A DNA stretch of 64,000 bases from Candidatus Blautia faecigallinarum. Lineage in GTDB: Bacteria > Bacillota > Clostridia > Lachnospirales > Lachnospiraceae. Below the pieces are notes generated by a model that had not been told where the DNA came from, did not search any database, and saw nothing but the letters and a program-made list of their open reading frames with translations. The position numbers and the translations under genes were made by a program. The stretch's first letter is position 1, and each line of letters starts with the position of its first letter. Of this stretch, positions 15,817 through 32,188 are shown piece by piece. Location of the stretch: assembly GCA_019116385.1 (NCBI GenBank), contig DXBU01000017.1, positions 2,930 through 66,929 of the forward strand, written 5' to 3'.

Positions 15817-17169
15817 ATGAAGATATTGTTGAAAAACGCCATGGTCATCACCATGAACGAAAAACGAGAGGTTTACCGGGAAGGGAACATTCTGATAGAA
15901 GACGATAAGATCAAGGAGATCGGCCATTTTAACGGGCCGGATGACTGTGACGAGGTTATGGACTGCAAGGGGAAAATGATCATGCCCAGCTTTGTGAACA
16001 CCCATACCCATACGTCCCAGCAGCTTGCCAGAGGGCTGGCGGACGACGTGGATCTTCTCACCTGGCTTCGGGAGCGCATCTGGCCCTATGAGAGCAATAT
16101 GACCGAGGAAGACTCCTATATTTCCACGCTCCTGTTCTGCGCGGAGCAGATCAAGGCCGGCTGTACCTCCATCGCGGAGCCGGGAGGACAGTTTGTGTCC
16201 GGCATGGCAAAGGCCATTACCGAAGCGGGTATCCGCGGAAAACTGGCCAATTCTGTCATGGACTGCGGAGAAGGGCTTCCCAGGGTGTGGCAGCGCAGCA
16301 CAGAGGAAGAGCTGGCCCGCCAGGAGGAGGATATCAAAAAATATCACAACACCGCCGATGGAAGGGTAAAAGTATGGTTCGGCATCCGCACGATCTTTAA
16401 CGCCACCGATGAACTGATCCTGCGGACCAAAGAGCTTGCGGATAAATACGGAGTAGGCGTGCATATGCACATCGCGGAGGCAAGATCCGAGGTAGAATAT
16501 GCCAAAGCCACCAGAGGCTGCACCACCGTTACCCACCTGAACAATTTAGGCTTCCTTGACAAAAATATCATGGCCGCCCATGCGGTGTGGCTGACAAACG
16601 AAGAAGTGGAAATGTTCCGGGATCACGGAGTGAAGGTTTCCCACAATCCGGCTTCCGCCATGCGTGTCCTTGGCTTTGCCAAGATCCCGCGGATGCTCCG
16701 GGAAGGGATCTGCGTGGCTCTGGGAACGGACGGAACGCCTACCAACAACCGTATGAACATGGTAGATGAAATGTGGGTAACTTCCCTGATCCATAAGGGC
16801 TGGAGACTGGAGCCGGATGTGGTGAAGGCGGAAGAAATCCTGATGATGGCCACCATCAACGGAGCAAAGGCTGTGGGGGACGAAGACCTCTATGGCAGCC
16901 TGGAACCCGGCAAGAAGGCGGATCTGATCATCATCGATCCGGACGCGAACCCGGACATGCTGCCGGTCCACGACCCCATCGCCAATCTGGTGACTTCCAT
17001 GCACAGTACAAACATTGAATGCACCATGTGCGACGGCAAATGGCTGATGAAGGACAGGGAGCTTCTGACCATCAATGAAAAAGAGATCATCCGCCTGGGC
17101 AAAGAACATGCGGCGGCGATCTGCAAACGGGGAAATATCCATCTGCCGGACAGATTTCCCATGCTGTAA
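15817..17169 (+). CDS. Amidohydrolase (MTA/SAH deaminase-like nucleoside or base deaminase)
   Basis: HTHT, HMHIAE, AHAVW, HNP and GTDG metal-binding motifs. Confidence 0.88.
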   Translation: MKILLKNAMVITMNEKREVYREGNILIEDDKIKEIGHFNGPDDCDEVMDCKGKMIMPSFVNTHTHTSQQLARGLADDVDLLTWLRERIWPYESNMTEEDSYISTLLFCAEQIKAGCTSIAEPGGQFVSGMAKAITEAGIRGKLANSVMDCGEGLPRVWQRSTEEELARQEEDIKKYHNTADGRVKVWFGIRTIFNATDELILRTKELADKYGVGVHMHIAEARSEVEYAKATRGCTTVTHLNNLGFLDKNIMAAHAVWLTNEEVEMFRDHGVKVSHNPASAMRVLGFAKIPRMLREGICVALGTDGTPTNNRMNMVDEMWVTSLIHKGWRLEPDVVKAEEILMMATINGAKAVGDEDLYGSLEPGKKADLIIIDPDANPDMLPVHDPIANLVTSMHSTNIECTMCDGKWLMKDRELLTINEKEIIRLGKEHAAAICKRGNIHLPDRFPML

Positions 17170-17232
17170 GAGGCAGTGCCCATAAGCATTCAGGATACAT
17201 AAAAAGGGAACAGACAAAAGGAGGTACCAGAC

Positions 17233-17835
17233 TTGGCAAAGAAATTACTTGTGATCGACTCCTGTGTGAGAAGAGAGGAATCCAGAACAAAACAGATGCT
17301 GGACGCGGCATTGGAGACATTCAAAGAACGTCATCCGGACTGGGAGACGGAGATCCTGAACCTGATGGAACTGGATCTGGATTACTGGCGGACAGATACC
17401 CTGAAGGCAAGAGACGCCCTTCTGGAAAAAAAGGATTATGACGACCCCATCTTCCGCTATGCGCACCAGTTCCATGACGCGGACGGGATCGTAGTGGCGG
17501 CTCCCTTCTGGGACTTGAGCATTCCGGCGGTCCTTAAGGTGTATGTGGAGAACATTTCTGTGGACGGGATCACCTTTGACTGCAATGCAGAGGGGATGTA
17601 CGGGCTGTGCCGGGGGAAATGGATGCTTTTCCTTACCACCAGAGGCGGGATCTGGGCCGGGAGCGATATGGAACAGGGCAGCACCTACATGGAGGCACTG
17701 TGCAGATTTTTCGGCGTCAAGGAATATCACTGCATTTACGCGGACGGCATAGACATCCAGGAGCTGGACGGAAAGGCGATCCTGGAAAAGGCGATCCGGG
17801 ATACCAGAAGCCTGTGCGAAAGTCTTACACTGTAA
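17233..17835 (+). CDS. FMN-dependent NAD(P)H oxidoreductase (AzoR/flavodoxin-2 family)
   Basis: TTG start with RBS ggagg. IDSCVRREESRT, AAPFWDLSIPAVLKVY and TTRGG. Confidence 0.82.
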   Translation: MAKKLLVIDSCVRREESRTKQMLDAALETFKERHPDWETEILNLMELDLDYWRTDTLKARDALLEKKDYDDPIFRYAHQFHDADGIVVAAPFWDLSIPAVLKVYVENISVDGITFDCNAEGMYGLCRGKWMLFLTTRGGIWAGSDMEQGSTYMEALCRFFGVKEYHCIYADGIDIQELDGKAILEKAIRDTRSLCESLTL

Positions 17836-17893
17836 TTGTGCATTGTGCATAAAAAAAGACGATAAAAACTATATAAAAGGTAAAAGATGACAA

Positions 17894-17915
17894 GAATCAG
17901 ACATGTGTCCGATTC
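17894..17915. promoter_or_regulatory. 22-bp palindrome, candidate Crp/Fnr-family operator
   Basis: GAATCAGACATGTGTCCGATTC is self-complementary apart from two mismatched pairs and lies upstream of TATACT (17933-17938). Confidence 0.55.
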
Positions 17916-30191: not shown

Positions 30192-30241
30192 TATCGTCCT
30201 GTGAGTACGGCGGCGGGCCGTATAATGAAAGAATTGGAGGA

Positions 30242-31420
30242 ATGATCTTGAAAGCAAAGAGAGTTTTTATTATTGTTCTGGACAGCTACGGCATCGGTTA
30301 TGAGCCGGATGCGGATAAGTTCGGAGACGTGGGGGCCAATACACTGGCGTCCATTGTGAAATCGGATAAATACGATACGCCCAATATGAAAAAGCTTGGC
30401 CTTTTTAATATCGAGGGTGTAGACTGTGCGGAAGGCGTGGACAAGCCCATCGGTTCTTTTGCCAGACTGCAGGAGTCCTCTATGGGAAAGGACACCACCA
30501 TCGGACACTGGGAGATCGCCGGCGTGATCTCGCCCAATCCCCTTCCCACCTACCCGGACGGATTTCCGGAGGAAGTGCTGAAGCCCTTCCGGGAAGCCAC
30601 CGGAAGAGGCGTACTGTGCAATAAGCCATACTCTGGCACAGAGGTGATCAAGGATTATGGGCAGGAGCATATGAAGACAGGGGATCTGATCGTATATACA
30701 TCTGCGGACAGTGTGTTCCAGATCGCGGCACACGAAGAAGTGGTGCCTTTGGAGGAACTGTATCAGTACTGCCGGCAGGCGCGAGAGATCCTTACCGGAA
30801 AGCACGGCGTAGGCCGCGTGATCGCCCGCCCCTTTGTGGGAGAATATCCAAATTTCCAGAGAACGCCTCACCGCCATGACTTTTCTCTGGAGCCGCCGAA
30901 GACCACCATGCTGGATATCCTTATGGAAAAAGGCTATGATACCATCGGCGTGGGAAAGATCTACGACATCTTCGCCGGAAAAAGCGTACAGCAGACCACA
31001 TCCATCGAGAACAATACAGACGGCATGAACAAGACCCTTGGGATCATGGATCAGGACTTCACCGGACTCTGCTTTGTGAACCTGGTGGATTTCGATATGG
31101 TATACGGGCACAGGAACAATGTGGACGGATACGCAAACGCCGCCACAGAGTTCGACCGTCAGTTGGGACAGTTTATGGAGAAGATGCGGGAGGACGATAT
31201 CCTGATCATCACCGCCGACCATGGCTGTGATCCGGGCTTTACCTGCAGCACCGACCACTCCAGAGAATATGTGCCTATGATGATCTATGGAAAAGCCATC
31301 AAAGAAGGGGTGGATCTTGGAACCCGTCCCACCTTCGCGGACATTTCCGCCACTGTGCTGGATATCTTTGACACGGAAGGAACCGCAGGGACCAGCTTCT
31401 TAAAAGAAGTGCTGAAATAA
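30242..31420 (+). CDS. deoB: Phosphopentomutase
   Basis: VLDSYGIG, GKDTTIGHWE, NLVDFDMVYGHR, TADHGCDP and DHSREYVP. Confidence 0.95.
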   Translation: MILKAKRVFIIVLDSYGIGYEPDADKFGDVGANTLASIVKSDKYDTPNMKKLGLFNIEGVDCAEGVDKPIGSFARLQESSMGKDTTIGHWEIAGVISPNPLPTYPDGFPEEVLKPFREATGRGVLCNKPYSGTEVIKDYGQEHMKTGDLIVYTSADSVFQIAAHEEVVPLEELYQYCRQAREILTGKHGVGRVIARPFVGEYPNFQRTPHRHDFSLEPPKTTMLDILMEKGYDTIGVGKIYDIFAGKSVQQTTSIENNTDGMNKTLGIMDQDFTGLCFVNLVDFDMVYGHRNNVDGYANAATEFDRQLGQFMEKMREDDILIITADHGCDPGFTCSTDHSREYVPMMIYGKAIKEGVDLGTRPTFADISATVLDIFDTEGTAGTSFLKEVLK

Positions 31421-31483
31421 AACGTCCTGTCTGCCGGAACGGCAGCTGACAGATAAAAATCAATGAATGGAGGTAATGAATCT

Positions 31484-32188
31484 ATGAGTATTCCAACACC
31501 ACACAACACAGCGAAATTAGGAGACATTGCGAAAAAGGTACTGCTTCCGGGGGATCCCTTAAGAGCAAAATACATCGCGGAGACGTATCTGGAGGATCCG
31601 GTATGCTTCAATACCGTCCGCAATATGTTTGGCTTCACAGGTAAATATAAGGGCGAACCGGTTTCCGTTATGGGAAGCGGCATGGGAATGCCCTCTATGG
31701 GAATCTACAGCTATGAGCTGTTTAATTTCTACGATGTGGATAAGATCATCCGCATCGGCTCCGCCGGCGCACTGCAGGACGACATCAATGTGATGGACAT
31801 TGTGATCGCCATCGGCGCCTGCACAGATTCCAATTACGCCAGCAACTACTGCCTGCCGGGAACCTTTGCGCCTACCGCAAGCTATGATCTTCTCTCCAAA
31901 GCCGTAGAGGTGGCAAAGGAGCAGGGCACACCGGTACATGTAGGCAACGTGGTATCTTCCGACGTATTCTACAGCGACGATCCAAAGAAACAGGATGGCT
32001 GGAAAAAGATGGGCGTTCTCTGTGCGGAAATGGAATGCGCGGCTCTCTACATGAACGCCGCAAGAGCCGGAAAGCAGGCTCTGGGTATCCTGACCATCTC
32101 CGACCATATCTACCGTGAGGAGGCGATCTCTGCAGAGGCGAGACAGACCTCCTTCAACAAGATGATGGAGATCGCGCTGGGAATCTGA
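31484..32188 (+). CDS. deoD: Purine nucleoside phosphorylase (DeoD type)
   Basis: PTPH, LPGDPLRAKYIA, GMGMPSMGIY, RIGSAGA and EMECAALY. Confidence 0.95.
   Translation: MSIPTPHNTAKLGDIAKKVLLPGDPLRAKYIAETYLEDPVCFNTVRNMFGFTGKYKGEPVSVMGSGMGMPSMGIYSYELFNFYDVDKIIRIGSAGALQDDINVMDIVIAIGACTDSNYASNYCLPGTFAPTASYDLLSKAVEVAKEQGTPVHVGNVVSSDVFYSDDPKKQDGWKKMGVLCAEMECAALYMNAARAGKQALGILTISDHIYREEAISAEARQTSFNKMMEIALGI

Follow-up and report, generated by a model that had tools for sequence, protein, structure and literature searches.

What does a protein with the fold of the ADP-ribosylglycohydrolases (ARH) do at the head of a nucleoside import operon? The question is raised by a cluster of 16 genes at positions 15817-32188 of the window, by which we mean the whole 64,000-nucleotide stretch of Candidatus Blautia faecigallinarum DNA analysed here. 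A first-pass annotation, made from the letters alone, had listed these genes and read them as a possible pathway for modified nucleosides or for glycosides derived from ADP-ribose or NAD, perhaps also for nucleoside drugs. The gene set is real: all 16 genes are intact at these borders and were confirmed with a six-frame list of open reading frames (ORFs), Pfam for the domains and the NCBIfam cut-offs for equivalog calls. The source genome is 91% complete. Our comparison of gene order and protein sequence leads to a narrower answer, namely that the ARH protein most likely works in the cytoplasm, where it would hydrolyse an imported non-canonical riboside.

The ARH gene is coupled to a BMP-type importer

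In the window, the ARH gene (20591-21991, + strand; PF03747, 144.8 bits versus 26.2) is separated by only 16 bp from the gene of a BMP/PnrA-type substrate-binding protein (22008-23138, +; PF02608, 180.9 bits). The genes for a tandem ABC ATPase (23257-24810, +; two ABC_tran domains) and two ABC permeases (24803-25867 and 25870-26790, both + and both BPD_transp_2) follow. To see how stable this arrangement is, we scanned one genome per species for ARH relatives, which gave 511 positive genomes. The locus comparison covers the best 80 of these 511, with an ARH identity of 63-86%, and includes all window proteins; 16 further loci beyond the best 80 were inspected as a distant set.

In 73 of the 75 loci with enough sequence, the gene that immediately follows ARH is BMP, and the ATPase and both permeases come after it. 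Since the core arrangement recurs in 80 loci of other species, the clustering is not a product of chance. At 37-53% ARH identity, in other families of the phylum, the order changes to BMP-ATPase-permease-permease-(NH)-ARH in 7 of 10 genomes, where NH stands for the nucleoside hydrolase gene, and below about 36% identity the linkage to the importer is gone. The first-pass annotation had tied ARH to the transporter, and this holds well: the neighbourhood is conserved, the link persists in distant relatives although their gene order differs, and metatranscriptome contigs cross the ARH-BMP junction.

The same annotation took the whole island to be built around ARH as one unit, which the comparison contradicts. 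Outside Blautia the only recurring genes are deoD, ARH, the ABC genes, NH and a kinase. In 48 of 52 such loci, the gene immediately upstream of ARH is deoD. For counts of gene presence we used loci with at least 8 kb on either side, 16 of them Blautia-like and 35 others; NH follows the permeases in 26 of the 35 outside the Blautia group. The compact form is best seen in Sedimentibacter saalensis DSM 13558, where the operon reads deoD-ARH-BMP-ATPase-permease-permease-NH-ribokinase and unrelated genes stand on either side. Its kinase is a true ribokinase (338 bits versus an equivalog cut-off of 300), as is the flanking kinase of Sedimentibacter in general, and the one in Blautia and Lachnospiraceae is of the YegV type. 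The evolutionary core is therefore the ARH-fold protein together with the BMP/PnrA-type ABC importer. It is flanked by DeoD, a RihC-like NH and a kinase in most lineages, and the 16-gene array is a Blautia-specific aggregation.

Within the 16 Blautia-like loci, amh2 (an amidohydrolase gene described below), the YegV-type kinase, deoD and the pair of YdcZ genes are each present in all, the flavoprotein in 15, udp in 13, amh1 in 7 and deoB in only 2. NH occurs in 4 of them, and ARH is kept in the 12 that have no NH. In the 35 other loci, we found the YdcZ pair in 10, the flavoprotein in 8, usually beside the YegV-type kinase, and amh1 in none. The flavoprotein and the YdcZ pair are accessories restricted to Blautia and Lachnospiraceae. 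In one distant genome (G229) a homologue of amh2, 47% identical, adjoins ARH.

Two Lachnospiraceae loci depart from the common pattern. An enlarged locus (L140, G592:C2:104000-123900) carries the BMP ABC system, a Crp-like regulator, four PfkB kinases, two NH genes and two tandem ARH paralogues that are 44% and 49% identical to the window ARH. In the other (L139, G582:C39:12300-23703), deoD is followed by a BMP gene that is 57-64% identical, with no ARH between them; the genome carries a YegV-type kinase on another contig. Additionally, the identity of ARH to its Sedimentibacter counterparts is 63-69%, which suggests that the ARH trait spread horizontally.

An ARH fold with an intact metal site and an additional domain

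The ORF of the ARH gene is open from 20561, and we corrected the start to 20591 (MKAWE...), with AAGGAG 6 nt upstream. This start is almost certain, because every homologue begins there and a strong ribosome-binding site precedes it. The PF03747 match spans positions 2-287 of the 287 in the model. In front of this ADP_ribosyl_GH core lies a helical N-terminal domain of about 145 amino acids, which is strongly conserved inside the clade and has no counterpart in solved ARH structures. Searched alone, the N-terminal 155 amino acids matched no Pfam family. The domain is specific to this ARH family. The protein has no signal peptide and is encoded by the sole ARH gene of the genome.

Sequence searches of the PDB gave no match for the single protein and marginal matches only for a profile, so a comparison of folds was needed. 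An earlier AlphaFold2 model built from 18 close sequences (pLDDT 72, with the conserved segment 198-274 disordered) was superseded by one built from a 42-sequence alignment, which reached a pLDDT of 95.7 and a pTM of 0.94. With this model, Foldseek returned target-normalised TM-scores of 0.78 for MJ1187 (1t5j), 0.80 for 2yzw, the Thermus ARH-related protein, 0.72-0.76 for DraG and 0.72 for ARH3.

Five residues, E180, D206, D207, D412 and D414, do not vary when the protein is aligned with YegU and five distant members of the family. They belong to the E motif behind the first glycine-rich block, the vicinal DD and the C-terminal DxD, which we take to be the di-metal ligands of ARH1, ARH3 and DraG. 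The Asp of the GDA(L/M)G motif is Gly in this ARH, at a position that varies within the clade. Because the metal-site residues are invariant and the modelled fold matches known ARH structures, the protein looks like an active hydrolase.

We also looked for signs of protein modification or defence. Pfam recognised no ADP-ribosyltransferase domain among the 16 cluster genes, and a search of the genome for DraT returned nothing, although its controls were equally silent. PADLOC defence models gave no match for ARH, the flavoprotein or the kinase.

The importer has a canonical nucleoside pocket

The PDB entries nearest to the BMP protein are Lbp (7x0r), BmpA, TmpC/PnrA and BmpD, all solved nucleoside binders. 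The nucleoside pocket of this family consists of two stacking Phe residues, a third Phe, a Val-Asp pair, and an Asp and a Lys that hold the ribose (PMC13325309). We read the corresponding positions by hand from a HMMER alignment and compared them with that paper: F49, D129, F193, F218, V264, D265 and K285 of the window protein align with F27, D98, F151, F176, V224, D225 and K242 of BmpA. Judged by this alignment, the protein retains all seven canonical nucleoside-pocket residues. The ATPase is 70-93% identical over the 80 loci.

The binding proteins differ in how they end their export signal. Blautia-type BMP proteins (window 22008-22100; L001-L048) carry a signal peptide that ends in ...VPVMA/EDD, with no lipobox cysteine. 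In other Lachnospiraceae and in Sedimentibacter, the orthologous proteins are classical lipoproteins (...AC/G) whose linker is rich in Pro, Glu and Thr. A second BMP-type ABC system of the genome stands alone behind dapA and dapB (contig C57:2098-6732). The closest match of its binding protein is AtzT, which binds atrazine and purine bases, and not one of the nucleoside binders, so the window system is the only nucleoside-type BMP importer of this genome.

Much of the island is ordinary nucleoside catabolism

The first-pass annotation had argued that the gene content exceeds canonical salvage needs. The following findings weaken this argument. Three genes of the cluster exceed their equivalog cut-offs: udp for uridine phosphorylase (18674-19450, +; TIGR01718, 312 bits versus 280), deoB for phosphopentomutase (30242-31420, +; NF003766, 518 bits versus 256) and deoD for purine nucleoside phosphorylase (31463-32188, +; NF004489, 351 bits versus 230). 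All three, and likewise NH, the kinase and the flavoprotein, are present in a single copy in the genome, so the island holds the only canonical nucleoside-cleaving enzymes of the organism. NH (26780-27742, +) is an IU-type, RihC-like nucleoside hydrolase (PF01156, 312 bits; RihC model, 292 bits versus 382). It falls below every equivalog cut-off, and the same is true of the kinase, the flavoprotein and both amidohydrolases.

These amidohydrolases deserve attention, as no classical, Add-type adenosine deaminase is detectable in the genome. The first, amh1 (15817-17169, +; Amidohydro_1, 218.7 bits), belongs to the cog0402-type group of deaminases for 5'-methylthioadenosine (MTA), S-adenosylhomocysteine (SAH) and 5'-deoxyadenosine. 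Its best NCBIfam match is 5'-deoxyadenosine deaminase (395 bits, cut-off 522) and its nearest PDB entry is the MTA/SAH deaminase 4f0r. The second, amh2 (28893-30191, +; Amidohydro_1), is closest to the PDB entries 4dyk, 4gbd, 4f0r and Tm0936. Its ORF opens at 28602, but homology begins only at about 28893, and we corrected the start to this position. In sequence, both proteins are thus closest to MTA/SAH/5'-deoxyadenosine deaminases. Adenosine-type nucleosides are known to be degraded by the successive action of a deaminase and DeoD. With no Add, with deaminases of the MTA/SAH kind and with udp, deoB and deoD as sole copies, most of the supposed excess is ordinary catabolism gathered in one place.

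The pair of YdcZ/DUF606 genes on the minus strand had been called an exporter pair of the DMT type. Two half-size genes of this family are indeed present, the first at 19935-20396 (PF04657, 105 bits) and the second at 19465-19920 (PF04657, 78 bits), but "exporter" is a Pfam name only. The regulator gene at 17887-18624 (+) encodes a Crp/Fnr-family protein with cNMP_binding and HTH_Crp_2 domains; it is YeiL-like, and YeiL is its best NCBIfam match at a sub-cut-off 61 bits.

The genes around the cluster are of other kinds. The upstream flank (13193-15648) encodes PhoU together with a sensor histidine kinase and is syntenic in L001 and L003; the downstream flank (32819-34879) encodes a GH42 beta-galactosidase. 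Neither is related to nucleosides. Just beyond deoD there is an ORF of 88 amino acids (32226-32492), with a strong terminator hairpin behind it at about 32509-32563. The ORF matched no Pfam family, and tblastn found no counterpart in the 80 related loci; it is perhaps strain-specific, or not a gene at all.

The kinase resembles YegV, and the ARH is not YegU

E. coli yegTUV, which combines an ARH-family protein with a transporter and a PfkB kinase, had been proposed as an analogue of the cluster. On the kinase side the analogy is real. The PfkB kinase of the window (27845-28747, -; ribokinase model, 130 bits with a cut-off of 300) is 33% identical to YegV over the full length. Its best match in the E. 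coli K-12 chromosome is YegV (164 bits; RbsK, 70), and the best match of YegV in this genome is the window kinase (172 bits; the next, 48), so the two are reciprocal best hits.

The other half of the analogy fails. A tblastn search with YegU found nothing in the genome at E <= 1e-3, and BLASTP aligned ARH with YegU over a motif of 70 residues only (E = 0.005), which rules out ARH as a YegU orthologue. YegT, an NHS/MFS transporter, has no match in the genome either. In place of YegT and the GntR repressor YegW, the cluster encodes an ABC importer and a Crp/Fnr regulator.

We also considered whether ARH needs a YegV-type kinase and dropped this idea for the clade: such a kinase is absent at E <= 1e-25 from all five Sedimentibacter/Tissierellales genomes that carry the operon. 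Taken together with G582, which has the kinase and no ARH, this indicates that a kinase-then-ARH route is not needed in the clade.

The flavoprotein gene (17233-17835, +; Flavodoxin_2 PF02525, 107 bits) encodes a putative FMN protein that had been labelled AzoR-like. The cautious wording was apt, since its azoreductase score of 90.8 bits stays below the cut-off of 188. In non-Blautia Lachnospiraceae (L026, L029, L031, L034, L036, L037, L043, L044), the kinase (-) and the flavoprotein (+) are divergent neighbours, and the pair is placed before the operon in some genomes and behind it in others. Their arrangement hints at a functional link between the two.

Expression and upstream control

Chicken-gut metatranscriptomes contain the sequence. 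Each of four independent gut RNA runs yielded a contig that spans the ARH-BMP junction, and contig depth is regionally highest on ARH and BMP. Behind the BMP gene, at 23164-23205 (+), a G+C-rich 13-bp hairpin is followed by a T run (-36.8 kcal/mol) and forms a putative internal terminator or attenuator. RNA contigs in four of four runs end at 23130-23164, the foot of this hairpin, and resume at or after 23337, inside the ATPase gene. This pattern is consistent with an abundant ARH-BMP transcript and some read-through into the genes of the membrane components. A second hairpin, of 16 bp (27806-27841), folds between the convergent NH and PfkB genes and resembles a bidirectional terminator. Rfam gave zero matches across the whole window, thus no riboswitch or other known RNA control.

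Upstream of ARH, at 20484-20513 (+), we found a promoter-like element that resembles the consensus: GTAGTAA, a spacer and an extended -10, TGTTATAAAAT. The block is conserved across 26 aligned Blautia-type upstream regions. Contig X1 starts at 20553, about 40 nt downstream of the -10, and we do not take this as a mapped transcription start site.

Further upstream, some relatives carry additional elements. Perfect ATGAC-N4-GTCAT palindromes lie 175-230 bp upstream of ARH in L001, L008 and L010. In L001, the YdcZ pair and ARH are separated by an additional regulator gene of the Crp/Fnr family (region L001:9065-9808 (-) and L001:9802-9870), and L008 and L010 show a comparable gap of about 1 kb in the same place. 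In the window the palindrome has decayed to ATGCCATATGTGAA (20415-20428), and the extra regulator gene is absent. A shared ATGAC-N4-GTCAT operator was therefore dropped for the window, where the site is not preserved and the sole match is unrelated.

What the ARH enzyme may do

We propose that the importer takes up nucleosides, that the other enzymes process the ordinary ones, and that ARH would hydrolyse the ribosyl bond of a riboside that those enzymes cannot cleave; we give this reading a probability of roughly 0.6. Nucleosides would be captured outside the cell and then imported. Udp and DeoD would phosphorolyse them, with DeoB turning ribose 1-phosphate into ribose 5-phosphate, and NH would free ribose for a kinase. 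The two MTA/SAH-deaminase-like amidohydrolases would substitute for the missing Add and convert adenosine-type nucleosides, 5'-modified ones included, into inosine-type substrates of DeoD. ARH itself would act as a metal-dependent glycohydrolase on a riboside that resists the phosphorylases and NH, whether modified, alpha-linked or otherwise non-canonical. Its product would be ribose, with no need for prior phosphorylation by the YegV-type kinase, and the N-terminal domain probably shapes the aglycone pocket.

The near-obligate link between ARH and the importer supports this proposal, and so do the retention of ARH in loci that have no NH, the paralogues in G592 and the ribokinase in the minimal operon. 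The modified-nucleoside pathway of the first-pass annotation thus survives in part: it keeps the conserved ARH-importer link and loses most of the "excess" genes to ordinary catabolism.

Several observations weigh against our proposal. To our knowledge, all characterised ARH enzymes act on ADP-ribosyl conjugates and not on free ribosides. The trait is rare and patchy, being found in 3 of 200 Lachnospiraceae genera (one genome each), and another genome of the same genus is without ARH. As G582 carries the operon without ARH, the importer works without it, and the canonical BMP pocket offers no hint of an unusual ligand. The RNA evidence consists of unstranded assembled contigs, possibly containing DNA, and is supporting, not proof. 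Finally, our literature searches brought up no characterised ARH in nucleoside catabolism and no biochemical data on this clade or on YegU (PMC10819704).

Other explanations have to be weighed against this. If the cluster worked in two steps as yegTUV might, the kinase would 5'-phosphorylate the imported riboside and ARH would split the riboside 5'-phosphate into base and ribose 5-phosphate, a route that would mirror PsuK/PsuG for pseudouridine. The reciprocal match of the kinase with YegV speaks for it, as does the presence of this kinase in all 16 Blautia-like loci and in several Lachnospiraceae loci. In the known substrates of ARH1, ARH3 and DraG, moreover, the cleaved ribose bears a 5''-phosphate. 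We nevertheless consider it unlikely, given that the five Sedimentibacter/Tissierellales carriers have a true ribokinase in the operon instead of a YegV-type one, that G582 has the kinase and no ARH, and that ARH is not a YegU orthologue. Somewhat more doubtful is a purely canonical salvage pathway in which ARH would be either a passenger or a redundant enzyme that, like NH, hydrolyses ordinary nucleosides. The canonical BMP pocket, the concentration of the only udp, deoB and deoD copies in the island and the existence of an ARH-less operon would all suit it; a passenger, however, would not keep its place beside the importer genes in 73 of 75 loci and through the change of order at 37-53% identity, nor would strong conservation of the N-terminal domain and the active-site residues be expected of it.

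Very unlikely, in our judgement, is a regulatory role in which ARH, like DraG or ARH1, reverses the ADP-ribosylation of a protein, for example a transporter or a catabolic enzyme, and has no catabolic task. The fold and the metal site are those of DraG and ARH3, and the characterised members of the family all act on ADP-ribosylated targets. Against this, the 16 genes include no ADP-ribosyltransferase domain, ARH lies within catabolic operons of two different gene orders, the tandem paralogues of G592 expand together with kinases and NHs, and the contig depth of ARH equals that of the binding-protein gene. We attach a similarly slight chance to the idea that ARH acts on an endogenous alpha-ribosyl metabolite, either releasing ribose for ribokinase from the ribose 1-phosphate made by DeoD or clearing by-products of the ADP-ribose type. 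Ribose 1-phosphate is alpha-configured, as ARH substrates are, deoD is the direct upstream neighbour in 48 of the 52 non-Blautia loci, and ribokinase belongs to the same operon. But a bona fide deoB exists elsewhere in 14 of 15 carrier genomes, which leaves no missing step, so the ribose 1-phosphate alternative is unsupported and we dropped a replacement of DeoB by ARH. Such hydrolysis would also waste the phosphoester bond and leave the near-obligate link to the importer unexplained.

A more specific version of our proposed import-coupled hydrolysis is speculative and unlikely. The clade could represent the first importer-coupled small-molecule ribosidases of the ARH fold. They would widen the range of a general nucleoside importer to ribosides that resist phosphorylases and IU-type hydrolases, for example alpha-linked or NAD-derived pyridine ribosides, with the kinase and the flavoprotein of Blautia and Lachnospiraceae forming a side branch for reduced nicotinamide riboside. 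The flavoprotein (Flavodoxin_2) shares its fold family with NQO2, an enzyme that uses dihydronicotinamide riboside (NRH), and in mammals NRH is phosphorylated by a PfkB-family kinase.

Significance and comparison with known systems

ARH-fold enzymes are known as erasers of ADP-ribosylation, and their recurrence in riboside uptake operons such as yegTUV and Rus has been biochemically unexplained for decades. The present clade is a clean test case, as it has a near-obligate link to one importer type of known ligand class. The compact 8-gene operon occurs in strains that can be cultivated, namely Blautia schinkii DSM 10518, Blautia difficilis M29 and three strains of Sedimentibacter (S. saalensis DSM 13558, S. 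hydroxybenzoicus DSM 7310 and S. acidaminivorans DSM 24004), and a natural ARH-less operon is available for comparison. Identification of the substrate would assign a function to genes of about 500 species and reveal which of the non-canonical ribosides are harvested by gut anaerobes. Nucleoside catabolic islands, BMP importers and ARH proteins beside transporters are already known. The searchable literature contains no description of this ARH clade or of its coupling to BMP importers.

The closest parallel in E. coli, yegTUV, consists of the NHS transporter YegT, the ARH-family protein YegU and the PfkB kinase YegV under the repressor YegW/GgaR, and its substrate is still unknown (PMC10819704). 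Both systems combine a nucleoside-type importer with an ARH-fold enzyme and a PfkB kinase, and ARH and YegU have the acidic E, DD and DxD motifs in common. They differ in that the importer here is of the BMP-type ABC kind and not MFS, there is no GntR repressor, and ARH is of another clade, with its N-terminal domain of 145 amino acids. Additionally, the window kinase lies on the opposite strand, outside the ARH operon, and in Sedimentibacter ARH is found without a YegV-type kinase.

The importer shares the binding-protein family, the pocket residues, the tandem ATPase and the two permeases with the BMP/PnrA systems (PMC13325309). These include PnrA/TmpC of T. pallidum, PnrA of S. pneumoniae, BmpA/BmpD of B. 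burgdorferi and Lbp of C. thermocellum (PMC13325309). Unlike the lipoproteins of that family, the Blautia binding protein has lost the lipobox cysteine. The operons of those systems are not known to carry an ARH gene; here ARH leads the operon.

Some ribose-utilization (Rus) loci of Bacteroidetes also contain ADP-ribosylglycohydrolases, themselves uncharacterised (bioRxiv 10.1101/574913). There, too, ARH-family genes stand beside ribokinases and nucleoside hydrolases, and the proposed role of these loci is to release ribose from varied ribosides (10.1101/574913). Those loci belong to another phylum and use SusC/D outer-membrane uptake. The resemblance is functional only; among the cluster genes we found no domains of a SusC/SusD pair, a RusR-type regulator or a RusT permease.

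The remaining genes recall better-known pathways. Pseudomonas aeruginosa reportedly degrades MTA through an MTA deaminase and a methylthioinosine phosphorylase, and archaea are said to possess DadD, a 5'-deoxyadenosine deaminase. The amh2-deoB-deoD unit likewise pairs a cog0402-type deaminase, of predicted specificity, with a purine nucleoside phosphorylase, although both amidohydrolases fall below every NCBIfam equivalog cut-off. With the canonical deo/udp catabolism and the RihA-C nucleoside hydrolases of E. coli and B. subtilis, the cluster shares the Udp, DeoB and DeoD equivalogs and the RihC-like NH. It is without deoA or deoC, and to the canonical set it adds the ARH, the YegV-type kinase, two MtaD-like deaminases, the flavoprotein and the YdcZ pair.

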